A stretch of DNA of 40,427 bases from a virus (lineage: Duplodnaviria > Caudoviricetes): positions 1 through 40,427 of the IMG/VR virus record IMGVR_UViG_3300017761_004934, one strand, 5' to 3'. Position 1 is the stretch's first letter. Each line of letters opens with the position of its first letter. The notes below the pieces were generated by a model. That model worked only from the letters and a program-made list of their open reading frames with translations, was not told where the DNA came from and ran no database searches. Made by a program: the position numbers and the translations under genes. Shown here piece by piece: positions 3,572 to 29,002 of the stretch.

Positions 3572-3594
3572 TATGAGACTAAGAAAGGATAAAT

Positions 3595-4368
3595 ATGTCT
3601 CATATTTCGTTTTCTGAACTTAAAGTTTGGAATGAATGCCCTCATAAGCATAAACTACAATACATTGATAAAGTAAAGGTATTTACATCAACTGAATTTA
3701 CATGTTTTGGAATTGCAATACACGAAACATGTGAAAAATCTCTACTTAAAGAGATAAGGGAGGACCAACTTGATGAATACTTTGAAAACAAATTCAAACA
3801 AGAAATCAACATCATTAAAAACCAAGTGGAGATTAACGAAGTATTGGTATTGGATATGGTGGCACAGGGTAAAGCAATCCTCTCTGAGCTTTATGAGAGC
3901 ATTAAAGTATACTTGGGTGAATACGAAGTAATCTCTACAGAAGAACCTTTATTTGAAAGAATCAAAAACATAGACTTTGATTATGATTTTAAAGGTTTTA
4001 TTGATTTGGTACTTAAAACATCAGATGGTAAATATCATATTGTTGATTGGAAGACTTGTTCTTGGGGTTGGGATACAAAGAGGAAATCAGATCCTATGGT
4101 AACTTACCAATTAACTTATTATAAGTATTTTTATGCTCAAAAATTTAATATTGATCCAAAGATGATTGAAACACACTTTGCTCTTCTCAAAAGAACTGCA
4201 AAGAAGAATCGTATTGAATTTTTTAGAGTATCAAGTGGAAATAAAAAAACAGAAAATGCCAATATTCTCTTGACAAAAGCAATTATAGCGATTAAAAATG
4301 GTAAGTATATTAAAAATCGTCTATCTTGTAGTGGCTGCGATTTTTATAAAACAGATTTATGTAAGTGA
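3595..4368 (+). CDS. Cas4/AddB-like PD-(D/E)XK exonuclease with Fe-S cysteines
   Basis: HISFSEL...ECP, GIAIHE, KGFIDLV, IVDWKT, QLTYY and C-terminal CSGCDFYKTDLC (1+3 Cys arrangement). Confidence 0.88.
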   Translation: MSHISFSELKVWNECPHKHKLQYIDKVKVFTSTEFTCFGIAIHETCEKSLLKEIREDQLDEYFENKFKQEINIIKNQVEINEVLVLDMVAQGKAILSELYESIKVYLGEYEVISTEEPLFERIKNIDFDYDFKGFIDLVLKTSDGKYHIVDWKTCSWGWDTKRKSDPMVTYQLTYYKYFYAQKFNIDPKMIETHFALLKRTAKKNRIEFFRVSSGNKKTENANILLTKAIIAIKNGKYIKNRLSCSGCDFYKTDLCK

Positions 4369-4375
4369 GTAATAA

Positions 4376-5626
4376 ATGAATAAAAAGATTAAAATTCTAA
4401 CTCTCTCAGATCATCCATTTTCACCATCTGGGGTTGGAACACAAACGAAATACATAGTAGAAGGCTTGTTGGCTACTGGTAAGTATCAATTCTTATCTCT
4501 TGGTGGTGCAATAAAGCACCAAGATTATAGACCTCAAAAGACTGAGCAGTGGGGTGAAGATTGGACTTTGTTTCCAGTAGATGGATATGGAAACCAAGAT
4601 ATGATTCGTTCTATTATGCGTACCGAAAGACCAGATATAATTTGGTTTATGACAGATCCTCGCTTTTGGGGATGGTTATGGCAAATGGAAAATGAAATTA
4701 GATCTAACATTCCTATGGTTTACTACCATGTTTGGGACAACTATCCTTATCCAACATTTAACCGTAAGTTTTACCTATCAAACGATCATATTGCTACTAT
4801 TTCAAAACTTACAAATGATATAATTGCAACAGTAGCACCAGAAGTACCAAGAACTTATGTACCTCATGCTGTTGATACCAATATCTTCAAGAGATTGCCA
4901 GCAGAAGAAATTACTAGGTTTAAAAAAGAAAATTTAAAGATTGAAGATGATAGATTAATCTTCTTCTGGAACAATAGAAATGCTAGACGTAAGCAATCTG
5001 GATCACTTATTTGGTGGTTTGGTCAATACCTAAAGAAAACAGGTATTAAAGCAACACTTGTAATGCATACAGACCCAAGAGATGTACATGGTCAAGATCT
5101 ACATGCCATAATGAAAGAGTTAGGTCTAGTAAATCGTGAAGTTCTCATATCAGAACAGAAAGTACCACCACAAAATCTTGCATATTTTTATAATGCTGCT
5201 GATGCTACGATAAATATATCAGATGCAGAAGGATTTGGTCTTGCTACTCTTGAATCTCTTGCTTGTGAAACTCCAATTATTGTAACTAAAACAGGTGGAT
5301 TACAAGACCAAGTAAGAAATGGAGATCAGTTATTTGGTATAGAAATAATACCTTCTTCACAAGCAGTAATTGGCTCACAAGAAGTGCCATTTATCTATGA
5401 AGATAGAATAAGTGAAGAGCAAATGGTTGGTGCTCTTGAAACATTTTCAAATATTTCAAAAGAAACAAGAATATTAATTGGACAAGCTGGAAGGCAACAC
5501 GTTATAGATAACTTTAATTTTAATGATTTTATTAATCGTTGGGATAAAATTATGACAGATACATACAATAAAGGTGTATGGTCTGAAAGAAAACACAAAG
5601 GTTGGGAGCTTAAAGAAATCGCATGA
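4376..5626 (+). CDS. GT-B glycosyltransferase (GT4-like)
   Basis: SGVGTQ, VPHAVD, NRNARRK, and AEGFGLATLESLACETPII (E-x7-E motif). Confidence 0.9.
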   Translation: MNKKIKILTLSDHPFSPSGVGTQTKYIVEGLLATGKYQFLSLGGAIKHQDYRPQKTEQWGEDWTLFPVDGYGNQDMIRSIMRTERPDIIWFMTDPRFWGWLWQMENEIRSNIPMVYYHVWDNYPYPTFNRKFYLSNDHIATISKLTNDIIATVAPEVPRTYVPHAVDTNIFKRLPAEEITRFKKENLKIEDDRLIFFWNNRNARRKQSGSLIWWFGQYLKKTGIKATLVMHTDPRDVHGQDLHAIMKELGLVNREVLISEQKVPPQNLAYFYNAADATINISDAEGFGLATLESLACETPIIVTKTGGLQDQVRNGDQLFGIEIIPSSQAVIGSQEVPFIYEDRISEEQMVGALETFSNISKETRILIGQAGRQHVIDNFNFNDFINRWDKIMTDTYNKGVWSERKHKGWELKEIA

Positions 5627-6873
5627 AAAAGAAAATACTAGTTACAGGGCCAGCACTTACTGCCTCTGGCTATGGTGAGCAATCTCGTTTTGCACTCAGA
5701 GCTTTACGTTCAAGAGAAGACCTGTTTGATATATATTTAACTCCTACCGCTTGGGGACAATGTGGGTGGATTCACGAAGATAACGAAGAAAGAAGGTGGC
5801 TAGACTCAGTTATAATGAAAACTGTTCAGTATACACAAGCTTCAAATAACCAACCACAATATGATATGTCGCTTCAAATTACTATTCCAAATGAATGGAA
5901 GAAGATTGCACCAGTAAATATTGGTTACACAGCGGGAATTGAAACCAACAAGATATCTCCACATTGGGTACAACCATCTAACCAAATGGATAAGATTATT
6001 GTTGTGTCTAATTTTGCTAAAAAAGGTTTTGATAATGGTGTGTTTACAGCAACAGATCAAAGAACTGGTCAACAGATTCCAAATTTTAAAGTAACAACAC
6101 CAATTGAAGTTGTTAATTATTCTGTTAGAAAGAATGAGACTACTGATATTAATTTAGATATTACAACTGATTTTAATTTTCTTGTTGTAGCGCAAGCAGG
6201 ACCAAGAAAAAACTTTGCAAATACTCTTAAATGGTTTGTCGAAGAATTTAAAAACGATAATGTTGGTCTTGTTTGTAAGACACATCTTGCAGGAGCTTCA
6301 CAAATAGATAGAGAGGCAATAACAAATAACATTCAACAAATTCTTGCTCCCTATAAAGATAGAAAATGTAAAGTCTATCTTCTTCACGGTGATATGACTG
6401 AAGCAGAAATGGCTTCTCTTTATAAACATCCAAAAATTAAAGCTTTAATATCACTTTCTCATGGCGAAGGGTTTGGTCTACCACTATTTGAAGCTGCTGG
6501 ATATGGACTTTCTATAATTACAACTGAGTGGTCTGGTCATACAGATTTTATGTATTGTGAAAATAAAGAAGGCAAAGTTAAACCACATTTTGCAAGAGTA
6601 GACTTTACACTTCAACCAGTGCAACCAGAAGCGTTGTGGGAAGGGGTAATTGAAAAAGATACTATGTGGGCATTTCCTGTTGGAACATCTGCCAAATCTC
6701 AAATGAGAGCGGTTTATAAAGATCATGACAGATTCCGTGGACAGGCAAAACGACTTGCCATTCATATTGAGAAAGAATTTGCAACAGATAAAATATATGA
6801 AAAATTTGTAAATTCTATTTTTAATAAATTTAAAATTGAAACAACAAATGAACTAAATGAAGTCATATTATAA
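5623..6873 (+). CDS. GT-B glycosyltransferase (GT4-like)
   Basis: SGYGEQSR, GPRKN, SHGEGFGLPLFEAA and WSGHTDF; ATGA overlap with the upstream GT. Confidence 0.9.
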   Translation: MKKKILVTGPALTASGYGEQSRFALRALRSREDLFDIYLTPTAWGQCGWIHEDNEERRWLDSVIMKTVQYTQASNNQPQYDMSLQITIPNEWKKIAPVNIGYTAGIETNKISPHWVQPSNQMDKIIVVSNFAKKGFDNGVFTATDQRTGQQIPNFKVTTPIEVVNYSVRKNETTDINLDITTDFNFLVVAQAGPRKNFANTLKWFVEEFKNDNVGLVCKTHLAGASQIDREAITNNIQQILAPYKDRKCKVYLLHGDMTEAEMASLYKHPKIKALISLSHGEGFGLPLFEAAGYGLSIITTEWSGHTDFMYCENKEGKVKPHFARVDFTLQPVQPEALWEGVIEKDTMWAFPVGTSAKSQMRAVYKDHDRFRGQAKRLAIHIEKEFATDKIYEKFVNSIFNKFKIETTNELNEVIL

Positions 6874-7873
6874 TTGTAATTTATTTGAAAATAATAACTT
6901 TTTAATTTATGAAAATTTTACTGTAGAACAAAAAGAGTTATTATTAAAAAATTATGAAGAACATAATAATAAAGCACATTTTAATAGTATCTTAGTTAAA
7001 TATGCTTGTTATTTTGAAAAAGACAAAACATGGGATAAAAATAAACCAACTATCATTATTTGTGTAAAAGATAATATACAGTTACTAGAAAAAACATTAG
7101 AAAATTTAAATTTTTTTAATGTTAAAAACATATGCAATATTTTTATTGTTGATGATAGGTCTAAACTCAGTTTAAAAAATATTACAAGAAACAATTCTTG
7201 TTCTTATTTAAGAATTGATAACGATAAAGGTTTTAATTTTTCTATGCTTAATAATATAGCTGCTTTTTTATGTTATAAATTAGGTGGAAATGAAATAATA
7301 TTGTGGAATTCTGATTTGTGGTGTGCAAATGAAGAAAATTTAATAAAATTTATACAAAGGCATAGAGAAAATAATTCTACTTTATCTGGTAGCAAATTGT
7401 TATATCCTCCAAAAAATTTATCCTTATATCAAAATGATGATAGTGAAAATATTAAAATTTATTTTCCATCAATGTCTGGAAAATGGAGAGAAACAATACA
7501 ATTTGGCGGTACAGTATGGATAAATGGTAATCCGCATCATGCTTATAGATTTAAAGATAAACACAATAATCTTGTAAATTGTGATAAAGGTGAAACATCC
7601 ATTACAGGAGCGTTTCAAATGATTAATTTAAATGACTTTATTGAATTGGGTGGTTTGAACCCAAGTTTATCAAAAAATTATCAAGATAATGATTTTTGTT
7701 TAAAACTTCTTGAAAATAAAAAATTAATTTTTTATTTTGGTAAAGATATACATTTTTATCATGATGAATCGATAACATTGCTTGCAGAAGGTAAAAATGA
7801 TAAACAATTATTTAGTGATTCTGTTTTATTCTATAAAATATGGAAAGAAAAAATAAACAACTTGGTGTATTAA
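6857..7873 (+). CDS. GT2-family glycosyltransferase (rhamnosyltransferase-like)
   Basis: IIICVKD...VDDRS, FNFSMLNNIAA, LWNSD, TGAFQMI and GGLNPSLSKNYQDNDFCLK. Confidence 0.82.
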   Translation: MKSYYNCNLFENNNFLIYENFTVEQKELLLKNYEEHNNKAHFNSILVKYACYFEKDKTWDKNKPTIIICVKDNIQLLEKTLENLNFFNVKNICNIFIVDDRSKLSLKNITRNNSCSYLRIDNDKGFNFSMLNNIAAFLCYKLGGNEIILWNSDLWCANEENLIKFIQRHRENNSTLSGSKLLYPPKNLSLYQNDDSENIKIYFPSMSGKWRETIQFGGTVWINGNPHHAYRFKDKHNNLVNCDKGETSITGAFQMINLNDFIELGGLNPSLSKNYQDNDFCLKLLENKKLIFYFGKDIHFYHDESITLLAEGKNDKQLFSDSVLFYKIWKEKINNLVY

Positions 7874-8418
7874 TGAATGTAGAAACATTTTTTGATAATG
7901 TAAAATTAATAGAATTAAATAAATTTGATGATAACCGTGGTTGGTTTCTACAATCATATGACGAAAAAATTACTGATTTATTAAAAATAAATTTTGTTCA
8001 AGAAAATATATCATTTTCACGTTTTGGAGTAGCTAGGGGGCTTCACTATCAATGGGAAAAACCTATGGGAAAATTAATACAATGTTTGAATGGTAAAATT
8101 ATAGATATTATTGTAGATATTAGAAAAGATTCTAAAACTTTAGGAGAATCAAAATTTTTCATCCTAGATAAACCAGAAAAATTATTATGGGTTCCACATG
8201 GCTATGCACATGGTTTCATTTCTATGCATAATGATAGTATTGTTAAATATATGTGTGATAACTATTATAATAAAGAAAATGAAAGTGGAATAAATATATT
8301 AGATAATGATTTACAAATTAAACAAAAATTAAAAATAAATATTGACAATATTATTTTATCGGATAAAGATAGAAATGCACAAAGCTTTTTTTCTTATTTA
8401 AAAGAGCCAAAATTTTAA
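7873..8418 (+). CDS. rmlC: dTDP-4-dehydrorhamnose 3,5-epimerase
   Basis: DNRGWF, FVQENISFS, RGLHYQ, VDIRKDS and VPHGYAHGF. Start at ATG 7873 gives TAATG coupling. Confidence 0.93.
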   Translation: MNVETFFDNVKLIELNKFDDNRGWFLQSYDEKITDLLKINFVQENISFSRFGVARGLHYQWEKPMGKLIQCLNGKIIDIIVDIRKDSKTLGESKFFILDKPEKLLWVPHGYAHGFISMHNDSIVKYMCDNYYNKENESGINILDNDLQIKQKLKINIDNIILSDKDRNAQSFFSYLKEPKF

Positions 8419-8430
8419 AGGATAAATAAA

Positions 8431-9321
8431 ATGAAATTTATAGTTACTGGTGGCCGAGGTTTTATTGGTAGTCATTTTGTAGAAGAAGTATTAAACCGAG
8501 GGGATATTGTAATAGATATTGATAAAATGGGGTATGCATCACACAAAACTTTGCCTTGGGATAACCATCGAAATTATACTTTTATAAAAGCAGATATTAG
8601 TGAAATTGATCATTTGCCATCTTGTGATATTTTAATAAATTTTGCAGCAGAAAGTCATGTTGATAACTCTATTAAAATTCCAGATGTATTTGTGAAAAGT
8701 AACATATTAGGAGTACATAATTTATTAGAGTTAGTTAGGAATAAACCATCTTATGATAGACCATTGTTCTTTCACATTAGTACAGATGAAGTATATGGTG
8801 ATAAAATAGATGGTAAATTTATAGAAACAGATAAACTTACTCCATCTAACCCATATTCTGCAACCAAAGCAGCCGCTGAGATGTTAGTATTATCTTATGC
8901 AAGAACTTATGGTTTAGAGTACGTTATCACAAGAAGTGGAAATAATTATGGAGAAAGACAATTTGAAGAAAAATTAATACCAAAATGTATATTTTCTATA
9001 AATTCTAAAAAATCAATACCAATTCATGGCGATGGTTCATATGTTAGAGATTGGACATATGTTAAAGATAATGTTGATGGAATATTAACACTAATTGACA
9101 AAAATATAAAAAATGAAACGTATAATATAGCCTCTGAAAATTATTTAACAAATCTACAAGTTGCAAACACAATTATTGAATGGATGGGTAAAGGAAAAAT
9201 ACAATTTGTAGAGAATAGAAGTGGTCAAGATTTAAGATATGCTGCATCGGCAGAAAAGTTAAAAAATATTGGATGGAATCCAAAATACATAAATGGTTTA
9301 TATAAATGGAAACAGTTTTAA
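8431..9321 (+). CDS. rmlB: dTDP-glucose 4,6-dehydratase
   Basis: VTGGRGFIGSHF, FAAESHVDNSI, STDEVYG, PYSATKA, NNYG and RDWTYV. Confidence 0.95.
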   Translation: MKFIVTGGRGFIGSHFVEEVLNRGDIVIDIDKMGYASHKTLPWDNHRNYTFIKADISEIDHLPSCDILINFAAESHVDNSIKIPDVFVKSNILGVHNLLELVRNKPSYDRPLFFHISTDEVYGDKIDGKFIETDKLTPSNPYSATKAAAEMLVLSYARTYGLEYVITRSGNNYGERQFEEKLIPKCIFSINSKKSIPIHGDGSYVRDWTYVKDNVDGILTLIDKNIKNETYNIASENYLTNLQVANTIIEWMGKGKIQFVENRSGQDLRYAASAEKLKNIGWNPKYINGLYKWKQF

Positions 9322-10001
9322 TAACTGGTGCTAGTGGTCTATTAGGTTCAAATTTGGTCAATCTTATTGATTTAAAAAAATACAACGTACTCACACCTAG
9401 CTCTACGACGCTTAACATTGCAGATGAAAGATCAGTAAATGATTATTTTATAAAAAATAATATTAATTTATGTATACATTGTGCTGCATTTAAAGATGTT
9501 ATGGACATAGAAAATAATATAAATTCTACAATTAGAGCAATCAATACAAATGTTGTTGGAACAATAAACTTATTGTATTCTTGTATAAGTAAAAATATAA
9601 AATTAATATATATTTCTACTGACCATGTTTTTGATGGGAACAAAGGTGATTATGAAATTCATGATCCAATAAACCCATTAAGTAAGTATGCAAAAACTAA
9701 AGGAGCAGCAGAACTTGTAGTGAGAACCTATGAAAACAGTATTATAATACGAACTTCTTTTTTTAATAATTATTTTCCATATGATAAAGCTTTTGTTGAT
9801 CAATGGACAACTAAAGATTACATTGATGTTATGGCTCCATTAATATTAGAAGAATGTTTCTCTGATAAAAAAGGTATAATTCATGTTGCATCAACAAAGC
9901 AAACACTATATGATATAGCTGTTAAAAGAAAGAAAAATGTACTAAAAAGTAGTATAAAAGACATATCTTTTAAAGTACCAATAGATACTAGTTTAAAATA
10001 A
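9306..10001 (+). CDS. rmlD: dTDP-4-dehydrorhamnose reductase (short form)
   Basis: ITGASGLLG, IHCAA, YISTDHVFDG and PLSKYAKTK. Confidence 0.85.
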   Translation: METVLITGASGLLGSNLVNLIDLKKYNVLTPSSTTLNIADERSVNDYFIKNNINLCIHCAAFKDVMDIENNINSTIRAINTNVVGTINLLYSCISKNIKLIYISTDHVFDGNKGDYEIHDPINPLSKYAKTKGAAELVVRTYENSIIIRTSFFNNYFPYDKAFVDQWTTKDYIDVMAPLILEECFSDKKGIIHVASTKQTLYDIAVKRKKNVLKSSIKDISFKVPIDTSLK

Positions 10002-10011
10002 GGAAATTATT

Positions 10012-11109
10012 ATGAAAACAATACCGTTATTTAAAATACATACTCCACCAAATATTGGTGCAAAATTACAAGAAATTTTTGATTCTGGATTTATATCTGA
10101 AGGCGAACAAGCTGATAGATTTGAATCAGAGTTTGGCAGCTATGTTGATAATAAAAATTGTTCATTAGTGAATAGTTGTACGTCAGCTTTAACTCTTGCT
10201 TATGTTGCTTCTAATGTGGGTATAGATGATGAAGTTATAACAACACCAATGACTTGCATGGCAACAAATGAGCCTATACACACTTTGGGAGCAAAAATAG
10301 TTTGGGCCGACTTAGACCCAACAACTGGTAATATAGACCCAGAGAGTGTAAAAAAGAGAATCACTAAAAAAACAAAAGCTATTGTAGGGGTTCATTGGGC
10401 GGGTCAACCTTTTGAAATTGATGAGATTAATACAATTGCAGCCGAACACGGTATTAAAGTCATAGAAGATGCTGCCCATGCTTTGGGAGCTAAATACAAA
10501 GAAAAACTAATAGGTAGCCATAGTGACTTTGTGTGTTTTTCTTTTCAAGCAATCAAACATCTCACTACGGTAGATGGTGGCGCTATTACTTCAAAAAATA
10601 TTAAAGATGATTTGCGTATTAAAAAATTAAAATGGTTTGGTCTTGATAGAAAATACCCACATAGCAAATGGACTCAAGATATAACCGAGGCTGGTTATAA
10701 GTTTCATATGAATAATGTAAATGCTTGCATTGGATTGGAACAAATGAAATATATTGATAATATTATTTCAAAACATAAAGAAAATTACAGATTTTATAAT
10801 AATAATATAACAAATTCAAAAATTATCAAAATGAGAGAAGAAAAACATTTAGAGTCTGCATGTTGGATATACACTATCTTAACAAAAGATAGAGAAGATT
10901 TGCAAAAGTACCTAGCGTCAAAAGGTATTGCTTCTGATGTTGTGCATGTTAGAAACGATAAATACTCTGTATTCAACAAATACAGGCTTAGCGACGATTT
11001 GTTGAAAGGTACAAATGAGTTTTGCAGCCAGCACTTAAATATACCAGTTGGTTGGTGGCTTACTGAAGAAGATAGACAATATATTGTGGATGTTTTAAAT
11101 GCCTACTGA
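10012..11109 (+). CDS. DegT/DnrJ/EryC1/StrS-family PLP-dependent NDP-sugar aminotransferase
   Basis: NSCTSAL, IEDAAHALG, FSFQAIKHLTTVDGG (PLP lysine) and GYKFHM. Confidence 0.93.
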   Translation: MKTIPLFKIHTPPNIGAKLQEIFDSGFISEGEQADRFESEFGSYVDNKNCSLVNSCTSALTLAYVASNVGIDDEVITTPMTCMATNEPIHTLGAKIVWADLDPTTGNIDPESVKKRITKKTKAIVGVHWAGQPFEIDEINTIAAEHGIKVIEDAAHALGAKYKEKLIGSHSDFVCFSFQAIKHLTTVDGGAITSKNIKDDLRIKKLKWFGLDRKYPHSKWTQDITEAGYKFHMNNVNACIGLEQMKYIDNIISKHKENYRFYNNNITNSKIIKMREEKHLESACWIYTILTKDREDLQKYLASKGIASDVVHVRNDKYSVFNKYRLSDDLLKGTNEFCSQHLNIPVGWWLTEEDRQYIVDVLNAY

Positions 11110-11860
11110 TAGTTGCAGAGTTATTGTAAACTGTTTCTTGGACGGAAGAAGCCCAAGAAACAATTCTCCACCAAATAAGATATCTGGCTTAAACTTTCTT
11201 AAACAAATTATAGAAACAGAATCAAATATTGAATCAAATACAAAATATGATTTAATAATTTTAAATCATAATACAGATTATTTAATTGGTAATGAATATA
11301 TTGATTCTATTAATAATAAAGAAATAAAAAATGGTAAAATAAGAACATTTACAACAAATAATAAACAAAGTTCTTTTGATGGGTACGATACTGCTTTTAA
11401 AAATTTTACGAATGATTACGAGAATTGGATTTTCTCAGAAGATGACCACTTGTTGTTTGCTAATAATTATTATGATATTTTTATAGAAGAATATAATAAT
11501 AATATTAAAAATAATATTGGATTTTTAGCTTTTGCACCAATAAGCACTACTTGCCCAACAACTCATAGTGGTGGTGGTTTTGGACTTTGTAAACGCGAAG
11601 ACTTGATAAAAGTATTAGAAATAAATGGAGGTAATTTACCTTCTTCAAATTGTGGGTATAATGTTACACAGTCTGAAGTATTCTTTACTCACTCATTTAT
11701 AACTATAGGAAAAAACTTAATACAACAAAATTCTTTTTCATGTTATCCTATAAATCATAGTATGTGTACTGACCATTCAGTACATAGAAATAATTCTAAA
11801 AATGATAGTGAAAATTATTTTTTTCAAGTTGGTGTTAAAGGAAACGAAAAATGGGAGTAA
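11099..11860 (+). CDS. Putative GT-A-fold glycosyltransferase
   Basis: WIFSEDDHLL (DxD-like) and HSGGGFGLCKREDL, inside the glycan cluster. Family not recognised. Confidence 0.45.
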   Translation: MPTDSCRVIVNCFLDGRSPRNNSPPNKISGLNFLKQIIETESNIESNTKYDLIILNHNTDYLIGNEYIDSINNKEIKNGKIRTFTTNNKQSSFDGYDTAFKNFTNDYENWIFSEDDHLLFANNYYDIFIEEYNNNIKNNIGFLAFAPISTTCPTTHSGGGFGLCKREDLIKVLEINGGNLPSSNCGYNVTQSEVFFTHSFITIGKNLIQQNSFSCYPINHSMCTDHSVHRNNSKNDSENYFFQVGVKGNEKWE

Positions 11861-11863
11861 ATC

Positions 11864-12430
11864 ATGCTTGGTTGGAATGAAGAAATAAAAAAACAGCTTG
11901 GTTATTGTGGAACTAATGTCTTTATTGGTCACAATACTCTGTTTGCAAATCCATCTAAAGTTTTTTTAGGTGATAATGTTAGAATTGATCCATTTTGTTG
12001 GATTAGTTGTGGGTTAAAAACTGGCAATAATATACAAATCACTTCACATGCCGTTATAGGCGGAGGTTCTCAACACACAGTAACATTAGGCGACTGGTGT
12101 TTTATTGGCTATGGTTCTAAGTTATTCTGCGCCTCAGAAGATTATAGTGGAGACTATGGACCCGTTAACGAATATTGGGGAAAAAATAAAATATTTAGAG
12201 GAGATATACAGTTTGGTGATTATTCTGGCATAGCGTCTGATGTTATGGTTATGCCAAATGTTAAGATACCAGAAGGGTGTACAATAGGAGCTAAATCATT
12301 TGTTTATACTAAAAATAGTTTAACACCTTGGAGCGTTTGGATAGGTAATCCATTAACTTTACATAAAAATAGAAACAAAGAAAATATAATTAAATTTGCA
12401 AATGACAAAGGATTTCTTAAAAATGTATGA
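11864..12430 (+). CDS. Left-handed beta-helix sugar N-acyltransferase (AntD/VioB-like)
   Basis: Hexapeptide repeats. GDNVRIDPFCWIS, ASEDYSG and LTPWSVWIGNP resemble segments recalled for the AntD/VioB subgroup. Confidence 0.8.
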   Translation: MLGWNEEIKKQLGYCGTNVFIGHNTLFANPSKVFLGDNVRIDPFCWISCGLKTGNNIQITSHAVIGGGSQHTVTLGDWCFIGYGSKLFCASEDYSGDYGPVNEYWGKNKIFRGDIQFGDYSGIASDVMVMPNVKIPEGCTIGAKSFVYTKNSLTPWSVWIGNPLTLHKNRNKENIIKFANDKGFLKNV

Positions 12431-13124
12431 TTCAAATACAATATGGGAAGAATTTTGGAAAATTGAAGACAAAACACCAATAATACAAAAAACCCATTCA
12501 AATTATTTGTCTTTATATGGCGGCACAAATTACGAACCAGATGCTTCAATTGGAATGAGTTGCTTTTTAGAGCCATGTAGAAATGAATTTAAAAATGAAT
12601 TTAAAATATTAGATTATGGCTGTGGTGCTGGTATTTTATCTAACTTTATAAGTCTAAGATTAGATAAATTTACTTACGTTGGTCTAGAACCAAACAGTCC
12701 ACATGGAGTTGAGAGAATCAATATAGCTAAAACACTATTAGACGATAATAGAGTTGAATTTGGATTCATAGAAGAGGGAAAGCTTCAGCAATTATATAAA
12801 AATAACTTTGATTGTATTGTATTGATAAGCGTATTTACGCATTTAATAATTGAAGATGTTTATTCAACATTGAATAAATTATTGCCATTTTTGAAAAATA
12901 ATAAAACAAAAATTATATTTTCTTGCTTTATTGACAATACTTATCAACTTTTATATCCACAAAATGATATAAATAAAAACTTTTATGGTGTAGTCAAAAT
13001 TACAGAGCAACAACTGCTTGAATATTCTGAAAAAAATAATATAATTCTTACTAAAGTTTGTGATTTTTTAGCTGCTGGTAATCATTGCCACAACATTTAT
13101 ACATTAGAGGAAAAGAATGAATAA
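12423..13124 (+). CDS. Class I SAM-dependent methyltransferase
   Basis: ILDYGCGAG, YVGLEP and FDCIVLISVFTHL. ATG 12423 preferred because AAGGA lies upstream. Confidence 0.88.
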   Translation: MYDSNTIWEEFWKIEDKTPIIQKTHSNYLSLYGGTNYEPDASIGMSCFLEPCRNEFKNEFKILDYGCGAGILSNFISLRLDKFTYVGLEPNSPHGVERINIAKTLLDDNRVEFGFIEEGKLQQLYKNNFDCIVLISVFTHLIIEDVYSTLNKLLPFLKNNKTKIIFSCFIDNTYQLLYPQNDINKNFYGVVKITEQQLLEYSEKNNIILTKVCDFLAAGNHCHNIYTLEEKNE

Positions 13125-13968
13125 TAAAAATTTAATGAATATTCCTTGGGTTGAATCGCCTTTATTTAATAAAATATTAAACTCAATTGACATAACTGAA
13201 GAACAAAAAGTTTTAGCATTAAAATTTAATAAAGATGGTTATGTTGTAATAGATCTAAATTTAAATGATAATCTAATTGAATCATTAAAAAATGATATCA
13301 ATAAAAACTCAAACAAACATCAAGAAAATTTTTATCACTATTCTGATAGTCCAAGAGTATTTGAAGCGTGGAAGCAATCAGAACACGTTAGGGCTATAGC
13401 AAATCATCCTAAAATAATAGAAACAATAGAATTTTTATATGGTAGGAGAACTTTTCCATTTCAAACAATAAATTTTATTAAAGGTTCTAATCAACCAATT
13501 CATAGTGATGCTATACATTTCCACACTATTCCATATAACTGGGTTGCAGCATCGTGGGTTGCATTAGAAGATATGGATGAATCTAATGGTACTTTAGTTT
13601 ATTGCCCTACGAGCCATAAATTACCAATCTTTGATTTTAAATCTCTAAATCTACAACCAGCAAAGTATGGGGAACAAGCTGAAAGTTATAAACAATATGA
13701 ACAATTTATTGAAGATGTGATTGAATCAAAAAATCTTGAAAAGAAACCTTTTATTGCTAAAAAAGGACAAGCATTAATATGGTCTGCTAATTTATTGCAT
13801 GGTGGGTTGAAAGTTACAGACCCAACAAGAACTCGTTGGAGTCAAGCAACTCATTATTATTTTGAAGGATGCGAACATTATTATGCACCCATGTTCTCCG
13901 ATCCGTTTAACAATATGTACGCAGAAAAAGATATTAAAAATAAAAATATAAGAGATTATAAACCATGA
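13117..13968 (+). CDS. PhyH-family Fe(II)/2-oxoglutarate dioxygenase
   Basis: FNKDGYVV, QPIHSD (HxD), WVALED...NGTL..CPTSH, KGQALIW..NLLHGG and RWS. Confidence 0.88.
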   Translation: MNNKNLMNIPWVESPLFNKILNSIDITEEQKVLALKFNKDGYVVIDLNLNDNLIESLKNDINKNSNKHQENFYHYSDSPRVFEAWKQSEHVRAIANHPKIIETIEFLYGRRTFPFQTINFIKGSNQPIHSDAIHFHTIPYNWVAASWVALEDMDESNGTLVYCPTSHKLPIFDFKSLNLQPAKYGEQAESYKQYEQFIEDVIESKNLEKKPFIAKKGQALIWSANLLHGGLKVTDPTRTRWSQATHYYFEGCEHYYAPMFSDPFNNMYAEKDIKNKNIRDYKP

Positions 13969-14933
13969 TTATAACTGGACTAGGTTCTTATTTGCCACCA
14001 CGAGTCTTAACAAATAAAGAAATAGAATCTTTCATAGATACTACTGATGAGTGGATACAAGAAAAATTAGGTATAAAAGAGCGTAGAATAGCCGACTCAA
14101 ACATTAGTGCATCTGATTTAGCATATAATGCTAGTATAATTGCTTTAAACGATGCAAAAATAGATGCAAAAGAAATAGACTTAATCATAGTAGCTACGTC
14201 AACGCCAGATAGGATAAGTCCATCTACTGCATGTATATTACAGCAAAAATTGAATGCATCAAATGCTGCTGCATTTGACATTAATGCCGTTTGTAGTGGA
14301 TTTATTTATGGTCTTTCAATTGCTAATTCTTTTTTAAAATCAAATACATATAAAAGAATTTTACTTGTAGCATCGGAAGTATATTCTAAAATTACTAATT
14401 GGAAAGATAGACAATGTGTTTTTTTTGGCGATGGTTCGGGTGCTGTTGTGTTGGAATTTGATGATAGTAATTTATTTGATTGTCTATTGTACGCAGATGG
14501 TACAGGAAAAGAAAATTTTACTGTAAGGGCAGGTGGATCATATATGCCAGCAAGCTATCAAACTATTGATGATAATAATCATTATTTTGATATGAATGGT
14601 AAGGCTGTATATGAAACTGGTAAGAAAGTTTTACCAGAAAGTATCTTGACATTGTTAAATAAAAACAATATATGTATAGAACAAATAAGTTATCTTATTC
14701 CACACCAACCAAGTATAAATATTCTAAAAGAAACAGCAAAAATATTAAATTTACCTTTTGAAAAAGTTGGTACATCTATGCAAGTATATGCTAATACTGC
14801 TGGTGCTTCTATACCTGTTACAATGGATTTGATGTACCAGCAAAATAAGTTTAAAACTGATGATTTATTAATTTTTGCTGCTGTTGGCTCTGGGTGGACT
14901 TGGGGTTCAGCTATTATAAGGTGGAAAAAATGA
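13965..14933 (+). CDS. fabH: 3-oxoacyl-ACP synthase III (KAS III)
   Basis: GIKERRIA, DINAVCSGF (Cys), FGDGSGA, IPHQPS (His), YANTAGAS (Asn) and GSGWTWG. Confidence 0.95.
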   Translation: MIITGLGSYLPPRVLTNKEIESFIDTTDEWIQEKLGIKERRIADSNISASDLAYNASIIALNDAKIDAKEIDLIIVATSTPDRISPSTACILQQKLNASNAAAFDINAVCSGFIYGLSIANSFLKSNTYKRILLVASEVYSKITNWKDRQCVFFGDGSGAVVLEFDDSNLFDCLLYADGTGKENFTVRAGGSYMPASYQTIDDNNHYFDMNGKAVYETGKKVLPESILTLLNKNNICIEQISYLIPHQPSINILKETAKILNLPFEKVGTSMQVYANTAGASIPVTMDLMYQQNKFKTDDLLIFAAVGSGWTWGSAIIRWKK

Positions 14934-15577
14934 AAAATCTTGTTCTCTTTGGCGCTACTGGCGGTTTGGGCTGTAAATTAAAAGAATCTTTAGCAAATAA
15001 ATATAATGTTATTTCTTTGGGTTCTAAAGATGTAAATATAGCGGATAAATTTAGTGTTGATAATTTTTTTAATTCTAACGATATTGATATTGTTCTTAAT
15101 ATGGCAGCATACAATTATGACTGTTTATTACATAAATATGATTTGAATAAAATAGAACTAGCTTCTAAACAAATAGAAGTTAACATTAATGGAAATGTGA
15201 ATATTTTATCTTCTTGTTTACCAAAAATGAGACAAAAAAAGTATGGTAGAGTTATTGCAGCTTCATCTGTTCTCGCAGATAAACCAATTATTGGAACTTC
15301 CATATATTCTGCATCTAAATCTTTTATAGAAACTTTATATAAGACAGCGGCATTAGAAAATATAAATAATAATATAACTTGTAATACTATACAACTAGGA
15401 TATTTTGATGGTGGGTTGGTGTATAAGATACAAGAGGACATACGACAAAAGATAGTTGACACCATCCCAGCAAAAAGATTGGGCACAATAGAAGAGTTAC
15501 AAAATACAATACAATATTTAATTGATACTCCATATATCAATGGAAGTACAATTAAAATTAATGGTGGATTAAACTAA
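14930..15577 (+). CDS. FabG/PhaB-like short-chain 3-oxoacyl reductase
   Basis: GATGGLG, ASS, YSASK, IPAKRLG and INGSTIKINGG. Start at 14930 gives ATGA coupling with fabH. Confidence 0.85.
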   Translation: MKNLVLFGATGGLGCKLKESLANKYNVISLGSKDVNIADKFSVDNFFNSNDIDIVLNMAAYNYDCLLHKYDLNKIELASKQIEVNINGNVNILSSCLPKMRQKKYGRVIAASSVLADKPIIGTSIYSASKSFIETLYKTAALENINNNITCNTIQLGYFDGGLVYKIQEDIRQKIVDTIPAKRLGTIEELQNTIQYLIDTPYINGSTIKINGGLN

Positions 15578-17169
15578 TGAATTTAAAAATTTTATTAATA
15601 ATGCCATATTTTGAAAGACCTAATATGGTCTTAAATGCTTTGAGAAGTATGGAAAGTGTTAATTATGATAATTATGAATTTTGTATAATTGATGATGGAA
15701 GTACACTAAACCCAATTGAAGATATTATTGAAAAATATAAATTTAATATAAAAAATTTAAAAATATTAAAAACAAACGATTCTATAGAAAATAAAATAAA
15801 AAGAGGTTCTATTCATGGTTCTTTTATGAATAGGGCAATGAGAGAGAGTAACGCAGATATTATTGTTATGATGAGCGATGATGATGCATTACACAAAGAT
15901 TATTTTAGTAACCTAAACACATTCTATAAAGCAAATAAAGATATAATGTACAGTTATTGTCACATTATCCCATTTGATCCCTTTGAACAAATCTCATGCG
16001 ATACTCTAAAACATTATAATCAAAATAAAGAATGGTCTACAAAAGCAGTATCTGGATTAAATTGGACAATCCCAATTAATCCATTTTGCAAGATTGATGC
16101 TACACAAGTTTCTTGGAGAGCCGAATGTAATAAAATTCACAACGTATGGCTTCCAGAGGAACAAACAAAAAATTTAGATGCTTCATTTTATAATGATATG
16201 TATAATAAATTTGGAAATTGTGTGTTCAATGGAGCGATTGGTATTTACAAAGGTTTACATGTTCAACAACTAACAAATAGAGAAGGAGTTGAACAATTTA
16301 AACCAGCAGATTCAAAAATTAAAACAAATTATATAAGCATTTGTACTAATTTTAAAAATGAATCAAAATATTTAAAAGAATGGATTGATTATCATATATC
16401 TATAGGTATTGAGCACTTTTATTTGTATGATAATAATAGTTCTGATGATTATAAAATAATTTTAAAACCATATTATGAAAATGGTTTCATTACATTAAAA
16501 AAAGTTGATGATGGAACAATAAAAGAAAAAGTTTATAATGATTTTATGAAAAATTATAGATTTAAAAATTACTGGATTGCTTTTATAGACTGTGATGAGT
16601 TTATAACGCTAAGAAATGATAAAAATATTAAATCATTTTTACAAAATTACGAAAGATACCCAGCAGTAGGATTAAATTGGTTGATGTTTGGCTCAGCAGG
16701 TCTAGATTATAATGAAACAAACTCAGTTTTGAATACGTTTACTAAATGCAACAATCCAAACAATAATGAACATAATAATGTTAGTTGCCACATAAAAACA
16801 ATATTAAATCCAAGAAAAGCAATACCACAATATATTAATCCACATTTTAATATATATGATACTATAATGTCTTACCCACAACCACCATTAGCAGTAGATA
16901 CTGATAAACAATTCATTACAGGACAAAATGAAAAAAATGATGGTGAAAAATATTACTTTGCGGCGACCGACCAACCAAAATTTGATACAGCTTTTATAAG
17001 ACACTTTTGGTCAAAATCAAAAAAAGAATTTTTTGAAAGAAGATTAAATGTAATTCGTGATGATAATGGTAAACAAAGATACGAAAACGAAAAACAATGT
17101 GAATTAGAGTTTAATATAATGAATAAATATTATAACGAACTTGAATATTCAAAATTTATTGGAGATTAA
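15577..17169 (+). CDS. Two-domain glycosyltransferase (GT2 + GT92/DUF23-like)
   Basis: N-half: MPYFERP, IIDDGS, MSDDD. C-half: FKNESKYLKEWIDYHISIGIEHFYLYDNNS, WIAFIDCDEF, IRHFWSKS. Confidence 0.85.
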   Translation: MNLKILLIMPYFERPNMVLNALRSMESVNYDNYEFCIIDDGSTLNPIEDIIEKYKFNIKNLKILKTNDSIENKIKRGSIHGSFMNRAMRESNADIIVMMSDDDALHKDYFSNLNTFYKANKDIMYSYCHIIPFDPFEQISCDTLKHYNQNKEWSTKAVSGLNWTIPINPFCKIDATQVSWRAECNKIHNVWLPEEQTKNLDASFYNDMYNKFGNCVFNGAIGIYKGLHVQQLTNREGVEQFKPADSKIKTNYISICTNFKNESKYLKEWIDYHISIGIEHFYLYDNNSSDDYKIILKPYYENGFITLKKVDDGTIKEKVYNDFMKNYRFKNYWIAFIDCDEFITLRNDKNIKSFLQNYERYPAVGLNWLMFGSAGLDYNETNSVLNTFTKCNNPNNNEHNNVSCHIKTILNPRKAIPQYINPHFNIYDTIMSYPQPPLAVDTDKQFITGQNEKNDGEKYYFAATDQPKFDTAFIRHFWSKSKKEFFERRLNVIRDDNGKQRYENEKQCELEFNIMNKYYNELEYSKFIGD

Positions 17170-17170
17170 A

Positions 17171-17344
17171 ATGCAACTTTCAAATCAAGCAGTAGGAGCA
17201 ATTATGATGGCTCTTCAAAAATCACTTATGGAACAATCAGATATTGTTCCAGTTATTAAAGAATTTAATTTAATTGAGACAGAAGAAGGATTGGTTGTTA
17301 CAAACCCTCCAGTTCTCTCTATGGATTCCGTAGAGCCTAACTAA
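17171..17344 (+). CDS. Small hypothetical protein
   Basis: MQLSNQAVGAIMMALQKSL...; GGAG at 17161 supports ATG 17171. Confidence 0.7.
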   Translation: MQLSNQAVGAIMMALQKSLMEQSDIVPVIKEFNLIETEEGLVVTNPPVLSMDSVEPN

Positions 17345-17604: not shown

Positions 17605-17918
17605 TTACTTTATCAATCTTATTGTTATTATCGATTACAATAAATGGCTTGTTATTTTGGTATACAAGAAAACTGTTAGAAAAACTTTCTGTATTTACCG
17701 AAGGCGTTATTGAATTTAGAACAAAACTGCAAGAATTGGCAGTGCATTTAGAGTCTGTTCATCAATTGGAAATGTTTTATGGTGAGCCTGTATTACAAAG
17801 GCTTATTCAACATATGAAACTTACAGTTATAGAGATAAAAATGTTTAGTGATTCCTTCATCATTAGCGAAGGTGAAGAAAAAGAGGAACCAGTTAATGAC
17901 CAAGAAAAAGCAGAATAA
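17601..17918 (+). CDS. Hypothetical membrane-anchored coiled-coil protein
   Basis: Hydrophobic N-terminus MITLSILLLLSITINGLLFWY followed by a helical region and an acidic tail. Confidence 0.7.
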   Translation: MITLSILLLLSITINGLLFWYTRKLLEKLSVFTEGVIEFRTKLQELAVHLESVHQLEMFYGEPVLQRLIQHMKLTVIEIKMFSDSFIISEGEEKEEPVNDQEKAE

Positions 17919-18576
17919 TTATTTCACAGATGCTCATGAACAAGCAATTATCAACTATGCACTGACAGATGATAATAAGATTAGAACCGAACTTTATGTA
18001 ACTTACATTGAACCAGCGTTTAATGAAATGGTGGATAAAATAGTATTTACATATAAGTTTACTACTCTTCCAAACATTGATGACCTTAGATCTGAATGCA
18101 AGATTTGGCTTACTACTATATTAGATAAGTTTAATCCTTCATCTGGCTCTAAGGCTTTTTCGTATTTTTCTGTTATTACTAAAAATTGGTTTATTCATAA
18201 AGTTAAGAAAACAGCAGAGCAAACTAAAAGAGAAGTTGGTATTGAAGACCTTACCAAAACGTCTTGCCACAAAACTCTTATTGTTGAACACAATTACTTT
18301 ATAAACAGAGAAGGAAATGAATTTTGGAGAGAGTTTTGGTATGAGATAAACAGTTGGGAACATGTAGAAATGAAAGTTAACGAAAGAAGAGTTGTAGAAG
18401 CAATTAAGATACTAATGCAAGAGCCAGATCACATTGAAATTTTTAATAAAAAAGCAATATATCTTTATATAAGAGAAATTACTGGTCTTAATACAAAACA
18501 AATTGTCAATAACTTAACAAAAGTTCGCAATAGATACAAAGACTTTAAGAATGATTGGGATTCTGGAAATATTTGA
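17896..18576 (+). CDS. Phage late-transcription sigma factor (T4 gp55-like)
   Basis: NNYFT, DDLRSEC and LDKFNPSSGSKAFSYFSVITKNWFI (region-2-like). Start at 17896 follows GAGGA. Lies immediately before the virion genes. Confidence 0.72.
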   Translation: MTKKKQNNYFTDAHEQAIINYALTDDNKIRTELYVTYIEPAFNEMVDKIVFTYKFTTLPNIDDLRSECKIWLTTILDKFNPSSGSKAFSYFSVITKNWFIHKVKKTAEQTKREVGIEDLTKTSCHKTLIVEHNYFINREGNEFWREFWYEINSWEHVEMKVNERRVVEAIKILMQEPDHIEIFNKKAIYLYIREITGLNTKQIVNNLTKVRNRYKDFKNDWDSGNI

Positions 18577-27214: not shown

Positions 27215-29002
27215 ATGGCTGATAAGAAAGTACCAATAAAATATACTGCTAGAGACTTTAATTCTATAAAGAACGAATTGATAGACCACGCTAGAAGGTA
27301 TTATCCAGATACAGTAAAGGATTTTTCAGATTCGTCTTTTGCTTCTTTAATGCTGGATACGGTTTCGTATGTTGGAGATGTATTATCGTTTTACCTAGAT
27401 TATAGTGTAAACGAATCTTTGCTTAATACTGCAACAGAAAGAAAAAACGTAATGTCATTAGCTAGACAAATGGGCTTTAAAGTACCAGCAAAAGCTATAT
27501 CTTATGGTAACGTTAGTTTATATATTGCAGTTCCAGCAAACGCATCCTCTACTGGCCCAGATTCAGCATATATTCCAATTATAGAAAAAAATAGTACGTT
27601 TAAATCAACAAATGGTCAACAATATATATTGATGGAAGATGTTGATTTTAGCAATACAAATAACAGAATAGTAGTAGCAAGAGTTGATTCAAGTACTGGT
27701 TTGCCAACAAGTTATGCAATTAAAGCAAACGGTAAAGTTATGTCTGGAAGATTTAGAGAACAAGTAATAGATATTGGTTCTTTTGAAAAATTCAGAAAAA
27801 TTGCTTTAAATAGCACAAATATTACTGAGATTATAAGTATTACTGACTTAGAGGGTCACGAATATTATGAAGTAGATTTTTTATCTCAAGACGTAATATT
27901 TAAAGAAGTAAAAAATACTGATACTTCAACTATAACAAGTATTTTAAAACCAATACCAGTTCCTAGAAGATTTGTACTTGAAAGAACAATTGATAATACA
28001 TATGTCCAATTTGGGTACGGCTCAGAGAATGAGGTAACAAACGAAACAGTTGTAGACCCAGCTCAACTAGTTTTGTCTTTACAATCAAAAACATATGTTA
28101 CAAATACTTCGTTTGATCCTACAAACATAATAAAAACAGATAAACTTGGTGTTGGTCCATCTAATACAACAATAAGAGTTTTATATCTAGAGAGCGATAC
28201 AGATACTGCCAATTCACCAACAAACAGCGTTTCCACTGTTTTACAAAGAAATCTAAGATTTAAAGATAGGTTAAATCTAACAAATACTTTAGTATCGTCT
28301 GTTGCTGGTAGTTTGGAGGTAAATAACGAAGAACCAATAGTTGGAGAAGTTGGAAGTTTAGAAACTGATGAAATTAAAATTAGAACTTTAGATTTTTATG
28401 CATCACAAAATAGAGCAGTATCAAGACAAGATTACATATCTTTAGTTTATGCTATGCCAAATAAATTTGGTGCAATTAAGAGATGTAACATAATTCAAGA
28501 TCCTAACTCTTTTAAAAGAAATTTAAATCTATATGTAATATCAGAAAATGATGTTGGTAATTTAGTACAAACAAATTCTATTATAAAAGAAAACTTAAAA
28601 AATTGGTTAAATTCTAATAGAATGGTTAACGATACAATAGATATATTAGACGCAAAAATAGTAAATATAGGTATAAATTTTTCAGTTATAACTACAAAAG
28701 ATTCTGATAAATATGATGTTTTACAACAATGTTACTTAGCATTAATAGCAAAATATAATTTAAATTTTGATATTGGAGAACCATTTAGTATTAGTGATGT
28801 ATACACAACATTAAATAAATTAGATGGTGTTTCTGACGTAACAAACGTTGAAATAATAAACAAAACAAATGGTTTTTATTCAACAACAAAATTAGATATA
28901 AGATCCCAAACTTCATCAGATGGTAGATTTATAAATGTACCACATAATGTAATTTTAGAAATAAAAGATTTAAGTAGCGACATAAAAGGAACCGTTAGAT
29001 AA
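27215..29002 (+). CDS. Baseplate wedge subunit, T4 gp6/baseplate J-like
   Basis: YTARDFNSIKNEL, YVGDVLSFYLD, ESLLNTATERKNV..LARQMGF, VQFGYG and QNRAVSRQDY. Confidence 0.9.
   Translation: MADKKVPIKYTARDFNSIKNELIDHARRYYPDTVKDFSDSSFASLMLDTVSYVGDVLSFYLDYSVNESLLNTATERKNVMSLARQMGFKVPAKAISYGNVSLYIAVPANASSTGPDSAYIPIIEKNSTFKSTNGQQYILMEDVDFSNTNNRIVVARVDSSTGLPTSYAIKANGKVMSGRFREQVIDIGSFEKFRKIALNSTNITEIISITDLEGHEYYEVDFLSQDVIFKEVKNTDTSTITSILKPIPVPRRFVLERTIDNTYVQFGYGSENEVTNETVVDPAQLVLSLQSKTYVTNTSFDPTNIIKTDKLGVGPSNTTIRVLYLESDTDTANSPTNSVSTVLQRNLRFKDRLNLTNTLVSSVAGSLEVNNEEPIVGEVGSLETDEIKIRTLDFYASQNRAVSRQDYISLVYAMPNKFGAIKRCNIIQDPNSFKRNLNLYVISENDVGNLVQTNSIIKENLKNWLNSNRMVNDTIDILDAKIVNIGINFSVITTKDSDKYDVLQQCYLALIAKYNLNFDIGEPFSISDVYTTLNKLDGVSDVTNVEIINKTNGFYSTTKLDIRSQTSSDGRFINVPHNVILEIKDLSSDIKGTVR

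Follow-up and report, generated by a model that had tools for sequence, protein, structure and literature searches.

The closest described relatives of the system studied here are clusters for acylated amino sugars and the large glycan clusters of aquatic phages. In Pseudomonas syringae, the viosamine island consists of vioA, vioB, vioM, vioR, vioS, vioT and acp (PMC3927599). Among phages, cyanophage S-SCSM2R carries 22 such glycan genes (13 glycosyltransferases, GTs) (PMC12801897), pelagimyophages have GT-rich hypervariable islands (PMC7029224), and mycobacteriophage-encoded GTs modify virion proteins (Freeman 2023, as described in PMC12619734). According to the available text of these reports and of those on Mimivirus (PMC4691112, PMC9614988), large phage glycan clusters, viral viosamine and virion glycosylation in mycobacteriophages are already known. 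In this study, we analysed a 40,427-nucleotide stretch of virus DNA (IMG/VR record IMGVR_UViG_3300017761_004934; hereafter the window), which contains a cluster of 14 open reading frames (ORFs) for glycan synthesis at 4376-17169. An earlier note on this DNA had called the cluster far more elaborate than the GT systems typical of phages, which is overstated in view of the S-SCSM2R and pelagimyophage genes (PMC12801897, PMC7029224).

Based on comparisons with other viral contigs, the first two genes, a pair of GT4 transferases, are core genes of a large aquatic myophage group, and the other 12 are one swappable allele. The interpretation that we prefer, with about as much doubt as confidence, is that this hypervariable cassette behind the core GT4 pair builds a glycan of rhamnose and an N-acylated 4-amino sugar, which is placed on the phage's own particle proteins. 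A broader version is more doubtful and is offered tentatively: throughout the group, protein O-glycosylation would be serotype-like, with the GT4 pair reading an [S/T]-G-S sequon in baseplate, sheath and capsid proteins and a swappable cassette setting the outer glycan, here a dihydroxy-acyl viosamine from a FabH/PhaB/AntD/PhyH module that is free of acyl carrier protein (ACP) and moves between unrelated phage lineages.

The gene cluster and its hypervariable slot

All 14 ORFs lie on the + strand and are contiguous, with inter-ORF gaps of -40 to +12 nt when counted from the first start codon. As the earlier note had described, the genes abut or overlap on one strand, and the enzyme families that it named were recovered in our Pfam, NCBIfam and PHROGs scans. 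The catalytic motifs of the cassette are intact. The true starts of RmlC, the methyltransferase and the reductase are probably the ATG codons at 7873, 12423 and 14930, respectively. The ORFs, followed by the two genes that frame them, are listed below.

4376..5626, +, GT4a (GT-B fold), candidate priming transferase (PF00534, phrog_2170)
5623..6873, +, GT4b, candidate transferase for priming or the second step, after which conservation ends and the slot begins (Pfam; follows GT4a)
6857..7873, +, GT2-type transferase, candidate rhamnosyltransferase (homologue matches PF00535; often before rmlC-rmlB-rmlD)
7840..8418, +, RmlC 3,5-epimerase (TIGR01221 157.7 bits, cut-off 155.75; H66/H124 motifs)
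8431..9321, +, RmlB-like NDP-glucose 4,6-dehydratase (TIGR01181 313 bits, cut-off 365; STDEVYG and YxxxK motifs)
9306..10001, +, short RmlD-like 4-reductase (PF04321; TIGR01214 102 bits, cut-off 224)
10012..11109, +, DegT-family pyridoxal phosphate (PLP) sugar aminotransferase, predicted to act at C4 (best PDB matches, RmlB-like neighbours)
11099..11860, +, GT with a GT-A fold outside the Pfam families, which may transfer the acylated amino sugar (AlphaFold and Foldseek)
11864..12430, +, AntD-like left-handed beta-helix (LbH) N-acyltransferase (profile and PDB comparison)
12396..13124, +, class I S-adenosylmethionine (SAM) methyltransferase (Pfam; no PDB match better than E 0.008)
13117..13968, +, PhyH-family Fe(II)/2-oxoglutarate dioxygenase (intact H129-D131-H228 triad)
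13965..14933, +, FabH-like ketosynthase, HQPS subfamily (TIGR00747 326.6 bits, cut-off 292.1; triad C110-H247-N277)
14894..15577, +, FabG/PhaB-like short-chain dehydrogenase/reductase (SDR) (closest to acetoacetyl-CoA reductase; best PDB match 4kms, E 8e-25)
15577..17169, +, fusion of a GT2 domain and a GT92-like domain (Pfam)
3595..4368, +, PD-(D/E)XK nuclease, a conserved marker to the left of the GT4 pair and outside the pathway (Pfam PF12705)
17141..17344, +, small conserved ORF at the right edge of the variable slot, directly after GT4b in empty alleles

Relatives of GT4a are encoded in 287 of 297 pattern-matched viral stretches and are present in Flavobacterium phage immuto, Microcystis phage Mel-JY01 and RM378. 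In the best 80 of these 287 stretches, the nuclease lies upstream of GT4a at all 80 loci, and GT4b comes next at all 74 loci with downstream sequence. Similarly, the right flank of the slot is conserved in 594 of 600 scanned viral stretches. The 29 loci that contain both anchors have 26 distinct contents, 5 of them empty and 21 with 2.7-13.8 kb. For 70% of the 210 pairs of slot alleles, no protein cluster is in common, and the maximum Jaccard value is 0.19. In one contig (L087), similarity to the window begins at 17168, the edge of the slot, and extends over 11,410 nt at 97.1% identity, while the 4.2 kb upstream are unrelated. The slot contents were scanned for protein families through 100 of the 522 cluster representatives and 59 further ORFs. 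Other alleles encode Gmd/Fcl (GDP-fucose), NeuA/B/C-type (nonulosonate), heptose-type and UDP-sugar dehydrogenase (uronate) functions, in addition to carbamoyltransferase, APS kinase (sulfate activation), C- and O-methyltransferases and GTs of families 2, 4, 6, 7, 10, 11, 15, 25 and 29. Collectively, the slot behaves as a bacterial serotype locus, which the earlier note missed in treating the 14 genes as a single unit. Some alleles (L093:7595-9202, L039:18932-20527, L160:6293-7021) end in a glutamine synthetase and a SAM-lyase-family gene, or have a carbamoyltransferase or APS kinase, hinting at unusual glycan decorations or stray passengers.

The genes around the cassette are phage-type by Pfam and PHROGs (PhoH, nuclease, muramidase, and gp25-like and gp6-like wedge proteins). 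A complete relative of 184 kb, G007, has a GT4a that is 87% identical and the same gene order as the window, and additionally encodes terminase, portal, major capsid protein and tail sheath. Because of this shared gene order and the sheath, we read the window as part of a myophage, probably of similar size. The nearest cultured phages, immuto and Mel-JY01, show 31-35% identity, and the sequencing runs containing window DNA are mostly labelled freshwater metagenome. A scan of the window found no tRNA genes.

The GC content of the cassette (27.6%, versus 32.9% and 28.7% in the flanks) shows no break. A separate contig, L171, carries the entire cassette inside the same flanks at 39-78% amino acid and 65-75% nucleotide identity, with the order of methyltransferase and acyltransferase swapped and one additional ORF. 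Every one of the 30 bins of 2500-15700 is covered by contigs from the sequencing runs X4, X8 and X9, and 19 of the 30 by those from X17; one X4 contig bridges 6529-10058 and joins GT4b to the rml genes. This coverage is limited to 2500-15700, with no single piece across the entire stretch. From the smooth GC content, L171 and the read-contig coverage, we rejected a chimeric bacterial insert, one of the cases that the earlier note had named as refuting its proposal.

Predicted sugars, acyl group and transferases

RmlB forms dTDP-4-keto-6-deoxyglucose, which leads to dTDP-L-rhamnose via RmlC and RmlD or, via a DegT enzyme, to an amino-dideoxyhexose. In the cassette, host dTDP-glucose would be converted by RmlB to the 4-keto-6-deoxy intermediate, from which RmlC and RmlD would make dTDP-L-rhamnose and DegT would make dTDP-4-amino-4,6-dideoxyglucose (viosamine). 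Pfam and NCBIfam searches found no RmlA nucleotidyltransferase in the window, which is a 40-kb genome fragment, and the host can supply this enzyme. The RmlD-like proteins of relatives are short as well (230-246 aa).

For DegT, the best PDB matches are 4zwv/4xau (E 3e-68) and CalS13 (2e-60), versus 1e-43 for QdtB and 5e-24 for WecE-type enzymes; we take CalS13 and 4zwv/4xau (presumably AtmS13) to be C4 aminotransferases. Among 20 distinct ORFs of 250-400 aa directly upstream of viral DegT relatives, 14 are best matched by dTDP-glucose 4,6-dehydratase, one by PseB and five by nothing at 1e-45. C3 amination is disfavoured, since the FdtA match on RmlC is weak (26.9 vs 166.9 bits) and the cassette has no separate gene for the 3,4-ketoisomerase that C3 amination needs. 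On these comparisons, DegT probably aminates C4, and we hold with fair confidence that its product would have the gluco configuration of viosamine. Because the acyltransferase is closest to AntD and the DegT subfamily usually follows a 4,6-dehydratase, the predicted product of the cassette is likely an N-acyl-4-amino-4,6-dideoxyhexose, and probably viosamine.

The best solved relative of the acyltransferase is AntD, represented by the 3vb series (profile E 2e-32 to 4e-33); the next match, at 3.5e-12, lies about 20 orders of E behind. In the available text of PMC6031040, 3vbn is identified as AntD. The acyl route that we infer from the sequences is CoA-based, with a 3-hydroxybutyryl group that is possibly hydroxylated further. 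The HQPS-type FabH would form acetoacetyl-CoA without a dedicated ACP, the PhaB-like SDR would reduce it to 3-hydroxybutyryl-CoA, and the AntD-like enzyme would move the 3-hydroxybutyryl group to N4 of the amino sugar, a transfer that we regard as somewhat more probable than other roles. PhyH would add a further hydroxyl to the acyl group; this assignment is tentative, and the alternative would be oxidation or epimerisation of the sugar. The nearest relatives of PhyH are phytanoyl-CoA hydroxylase by profile and the sugar epimerase SnoN by fold. A halogenase was rejected, as PhyH retains the H-x-D triad. For the methyltransferase, O-methylation of the sugar is about as likely as not. The calculated residue mass is 231.11 for N-hydroxybutyryl-viosamine, 245.13 with the methyl group and 261.12 with the further hydroxyl as well.

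Three of four basic residues of FabH are replaced (E217/N252/I260 versus K214/R249/K257 in E. coli), and the SDR has N146 in place of R172; we take these to be ACP-binding positions. E. coli AcpP matched neither the window nor any of 360 other loci, while the positive control matched, and there is no ACP-like ORF in the window or near the 42 viral modules. Additionally, no Pfam or NCBIfam match among the cassette ORFs was found for an enoyl-CoA hydratase, the enzyme of the anthrose operon that we take to be AntA and to supply 3-hydroxy-3-methylbutyryl-CoA.

The 42 viral LbH loci collapse to 28 distinct ones, 18 close to that of the window and 10 distant. The close modules carry DegT (17), PhyH (15), SDR (15), the GT-A-fold GT (14), the GT2-type transferase (10), methyltransferase (9) and FabH (4), and the distant ones carry FabH (8), PhyH (6) and SDR (2). 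Among 79 metagenome PhyH loci, a redundant set that excludes L362, apparently the window's own contig, LbH is present in 67 and SDR in 61. At 80 bacterial loci with the same FabH, mostly of Bacteroidota, PhyH occurs once. The SDR follows FabH in 24 of these loci, with sugar genes nearby in 17 of the 24, and several of the scanned FabH-SDR loci carry Wzx-type flippases and LbH or GNAT transferases. PhyH, to which the earlier note gave no role, is thus among the most constant partners of the module and is apparently an integral, phage-typical one. The composition of the modules indicates that FabH and SDR can be left to the host. Besides this clade, the amino-sugar module occurs in distant phages that have the GT4 pair and in T4-like ones; in the T4-like L168, it is flanked by uvsY and the gp47/46 region. 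Scanning viral contigs with a single FabH sequence gave a blank, which reflects the sensitivity limit of that scan, as other scans showed viral FabH homologues; the FabH matches from the 'phages' collection, for the most part to small or unannotated records, were excluded. A second, distant LbH type (L350-L358, L400-L441) stands with PhyH and either FabH or SDR, often followed by a short DegT-like ORF, and forms a sister acylation module.

The presence of about six GT domains, as counted in the earlier note, was confirmed: two GT4, the GT2-type, the GT-A-fold and the two domains of the GT2 and GT92-like fusion. The protein of 6857-7873 itself has no Pfam match, and its GT2 assignment comes through a homologue; its relative precedes rml genes in L016/L166, L056 and L171 and occurs without them in L021 and L122. 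For 11099-11860, the AlphaFold model (17-sequence alignment, pLDDT 88.9) matches GT-A folds such as RmlT, TarP and SpsA in Foldseek, and the family has an invariant FxEDD motif. The GT2 domain of 15577-17169 is stand-alone in other modules.

Probable acceptor of the glycan

None of the 1258 cassette ORFs (159 loci, redundant) has at least 3 predicted transmembrane (TM) segments, and no flippase, polymerase or GtrABC-type membrane protein was found among them; of the 17 bacterial loci used as the control, 15 encode a protein with at least 4 predicted TM segments. The phage-encoded GTs of the cassette are soluble by TM prediction. Phage immuto 2-6A has a syntenic cassette with the layout PD-(D/E)XK-GT4-GT4-...-DegT, in which DegT is 38% identical to that of the window, and its DNA is described in the available text as containing dA, dC, dT and fdPreQ1 only (bioRxiv 2023.04.13.536721). 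Hydroxymethylase, TET/JBP and DpdA had no match in the window or in 76 scanned proteins (75 from the 167 ORFs of G007); G007 encodes two ordinary DNA methylases. The motif [S/T]GS is enriched in two proteins of the window:

29002..30441, +, baseplate-region protein, candidate acceptor (5 [S/T]GS vs 0.7 expected; probably structural, from its position)
30431..36286, +, large baseplate/tail-region protein, candidate acceptor (15 [S/T]GS vs 2.6 expected)

The former belongs to a virus-only family with a weak CBM96 lead, and the structural role of the latter is inferred from its position after the wedge genes and from synteny with immuto. Because the cassettes are soluble, the immuto DNA has no sugar-modified base and [S/T]GS is enriched, virion proteins are the likely target of the glycan.

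Phages that have both a filled slot and the GT4 pair show [S/T]GS at about 2-6 times the expected frequency, mostly in proteins of the tail region. Genome-wide, the observed/expected ratio of [S/T]GS is 2.90 in G007, 1.94 in G008 and 2.97 in G009; in structural regions it is 5.64 in Mel-JY01 and 3.46 in immuto, whose tail and spike proteins are enriched, versus 0.43 in T4. Records without the GT4 pair (G010-G013) have 1.14-1.41, LR756508, in which only GT4a was found, has 1.5, and RM378, with a weak GT4b match, has 1.9. The motif is directional, with no excess of SGT or TGT in G007-G009, and is a feature of the protein level, encoded by 39 codon combinations. In G007, the sheath has 9 sites (1.2 expected) and the major capsid protein 4 (0.9), and portal and terminase have 0; in the window, each cassette enzyme has at most one. 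Furthermore, the window and ten other genomes have 3-10 sites in the protein of 29002-30441 and its orthologues, as opposed to 0-2 in a subclade of five genomes whose slot is empty and whose GT4b is short and divergent; there, the homologous sites are replaced. In the proposed mechanism, GT4a and GT4b would act in the cytoplasm as priming enzymes on Ser/Thr of the [S/T]-G-S sites of capsid, baseplate and tail proteins, the cassette GTs would lengthen the chain, the acylated sugar would cap the glycan, and a swap of the cassette would change the glycotype of the virion.

Several observations speak against this interpretation. RmlB and RmlD score under their equivalog cut-offs, so that either dTDP or UDP could be the nucleotide, and either rhamnose or 6-deoxytalose could be formed; the best DegT matches, 4zwv/4xau, presumably act in an aminopentose pathway; the identity of the acyltransferase to AntD is modest, with Gly at the position of AntD Ser84; the folds nearest to PhyH include SnoN besides phytanoyl-CoA hydroxylase; and FabH is missing in 14 of 18 close modules and SDR in 8 of 10 distant ones. 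For the motif, the loss of sites in the empty-slot subclade counts as a single evolutionary event, the regional samples of that subclade are still 1.4-2.7-fold enriched in four of five genomes, and the enrichment is confounded with ancestry. In G016, whose slot is empty, the motif is kept (10 vs 1.4 in one protein), by which we rejected the idea that the motif requires a filled slot. Moreover, sheath and capsid of G015 are not enriched, T4-like phages carry the amino-sugar module without the GT4 pair or the motif, and most motif-rich proteins have no family match, their structural role being taken from position.

The same chemistry could instead place the sugars on host surface glycans (lipopolysaccharide O-chain, capsule or glycoproteins) to block superinfection or alter grazing, which is how similar pelagimyophage and cyanomyophage clusters are read in the available text of PMC7029224 and PMC12801897. 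The derivation of the HQPS FabH-SDR pair from bacterial Wzx-type clusters agrees with this, and soluble GTs could work on the cytoplasmic face of host lipid-linked intermediates. We consider a host-surface target unlikely, as the cassette ORFs include none of the membrane proteins sought, the GT4 pair belongs to the core genes of relatives that are recorded under different hosts, a poor fit with host-specific acceptors, and G007, a myophage with a sheath, is probably lytic and would have little time for surface remodelling. Phage GTs are also known for glycan modification of DNA (Pyle 2024, as cited in PMC12619734), the GT4 pair adjoins a nuclease gene, and GT4a weakly matches 'GT4 in conflict systems'; the cassette might accordingly hypermodify the phage's DNA with glycans against nucleases. 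This is very improbable given the immuto 2-6A DNA, for which the available text gives no glycosylated nucleoside (bioRxiv 2023.04.13.536721), the lack of hydroxymethylase, TET/JBP and DpdA matches in the scanned proteins, and the ordinary methylases of G007.

The virion proteins may be glycosylated at other sites, and [S/T]GS could be structural instead of glycosylation-related, merely a turn typical of the clade, with attachment at protein termini or TPTPS-type linkers. G016 would fit this, as would the several [S/T]GS sites that are fixed at homologous columns and a 910-aa protein of G009 with 89 TP[ST] repeats. However, the motif is directional and occurs in unrelated proteins (sheath, capsid and spikes). 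T4 lacks it, as do portal and terminase, and the subclade with the empty slot and divergent GT4b has other residues at the homologous sites; we regard a purely structural turn as quite unlikely. Finally, the amino sugar may not be of the viosamine type but may come from another nucleotide sugar or be a C4 epimer, or the product may be a diffusible small molecule instead of a glycoconjugate. DegT falls below every NCBIfam cut-off with PseC as the best model, 6 of its 20 upstream neighbours are not RmlB-like, and SnoN is the top fold match of PhyH. With an AntD-like partner, RmlB-like neighbours in the other 14 of 20, six GT domains in the operon and no exporter, a product of this other kind is very unlikely.

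Several side observations concern the motif and its carriers. The subclade with the empty slot (L545-L550, G014, G019-G021, G023) has a GT4b of 385-389 aa and reduced [S/T]GS, and G014 has collagen-like PQG repeats. In Mel-JY01 (L082, 83441-84932), GT4a is annotated as two adjacent ORFs, a split gene or a sequencing frameshift; its motif excess is nonetheless the highest seen. In the two window ORFs of 30431-39138, [S/T]SS is enriched too (18 vs 5.5; 9 vs 2.0), so that in this lineage the motif may extend beyond [S/T]GS; several relatives have these ORFs as one fused protein. The repeat protein of G009 (L475:8933-11662), a mucin-like linker, is a second candidate glycan acceptor in a GT4-pair phage. 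Elsewhere in the window, 38-604 encodes a SpoU/TrmH-family RNA 2'-O-methyltransferase found only in the closest relatives (L001-L004, L063, G007). The clade-conserved gene at 2827-3546 has weak, below-cut-off matches to zincin-like peptidases (ATLF 23.6 bits, Peptidase_M90), and its product is probably a small metallopeptidase-fold protein. The 242-aa protein of 17848-18576, with no family match and at least 594 viral relatives, is a strong clade marker and possibly a sigma-like factor.

Comparison with described systems

If the glycan is built and placed on virion proteins as proposed, phage particles would have glycotypes that vary like bacterial O-antigens, which would explain the big 'LPS gene' clusters of aquatic phages that are usually assigned to host modification. 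The target question is open to direct test, as both the core pair and the motif are present in cultured relatives, immuto 2-6A and Mel-JY01. Glycoengineering would also profit from such a soluble glycosylation system, with its three-residue sequon and its many sugar modules.

Large, variable clusters of GT and nucleotide-sugar genes are shared with other big aquatic myophages, namely cyanomyophages, pelagimyophages and moraphages (PMC12801897, PMC7029224, PMC12619734). The available text of these papers proposes host-surface or DNA targets, with virions also mentioned for the moraphages, and an acyl-amino-sugar module, a fixed slot and an acceptor motif are not among the features described there. 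Our literature search, which covered titles and abstract openings, with most subscription papers outside its scope, found no description of a phage acyl-viosamine pathway, an S/T-G-S sequon, a fixed slot or an ACP-free acyl module with PhyH. Mycobacteriophages likewise use phage-encoded GTs, with few GTs and with glycans reported at the C-termini of capsid and tail-tube proteins (as described in PMC12619734); the virion glycans here are predicted from genes and motif. The description in that source mentions no nucleotide-sugar pathways of their own, swappable slot or internal motif for the mycobacteriophage systems; the cassette phages have these features, the motif as a candidate. Similar to the cassette, Mimivirus has a viral cluster for rhamnose and N-acyl, O-methyl viosamine, which it uses on its own particle; it differs in being a eukaryotic virus with UDP sugars, a simple N-acetyl group and a bifunctional epimerase/reductase (available text of PMC4691112, PMC9614988).

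Among bacterial systems, the anthrose operon resembles the cassette in its acyltransferase, AntD being the closest solved relative, and in the transfer, predicted for the cassette, of an acyl group from a CoA thioester to N4 of viosamine; anthrose carries 3-hydroxy-3-methylbutyryl, in contrast to the C4 acyl group to which the phage FabH and SDR point (available text of PMC6031040, PMC9614988). Like the P. syringae island, the cassette unites FabH and a FabG-like reductase (VioS and VioR in the island) with an aminotransferase, an acyltransferase, a methyltransferase and GT genes, a likeness at the family level, and the plan of a rhamnose chain capped by acylated viosamine is predicted for it as well. 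In the island, VioA acts on dTDP-4-keto-6-deoxyglucose and VioM methylates O-2; DegT is a candidate for the former role, and the cassette methyltransferase has no informative structural relative. Unlike the island as described in the available text, the phage cassette has no ACP, an optional FabH, an added PhyH and rml genes in the operon (PMC3927599). The logic of rhamnose plus acylated amino sugar proposed in the earlier note therefore holds at the family level, through the AntD-like LbH enzyme and DegT with its RmlB-like neighbours, but the absence of an ACP sets the cassette apart from a viosamine island. Collectively, the cassette works like the viosamine island or the anthrose operon but belongs to neither.

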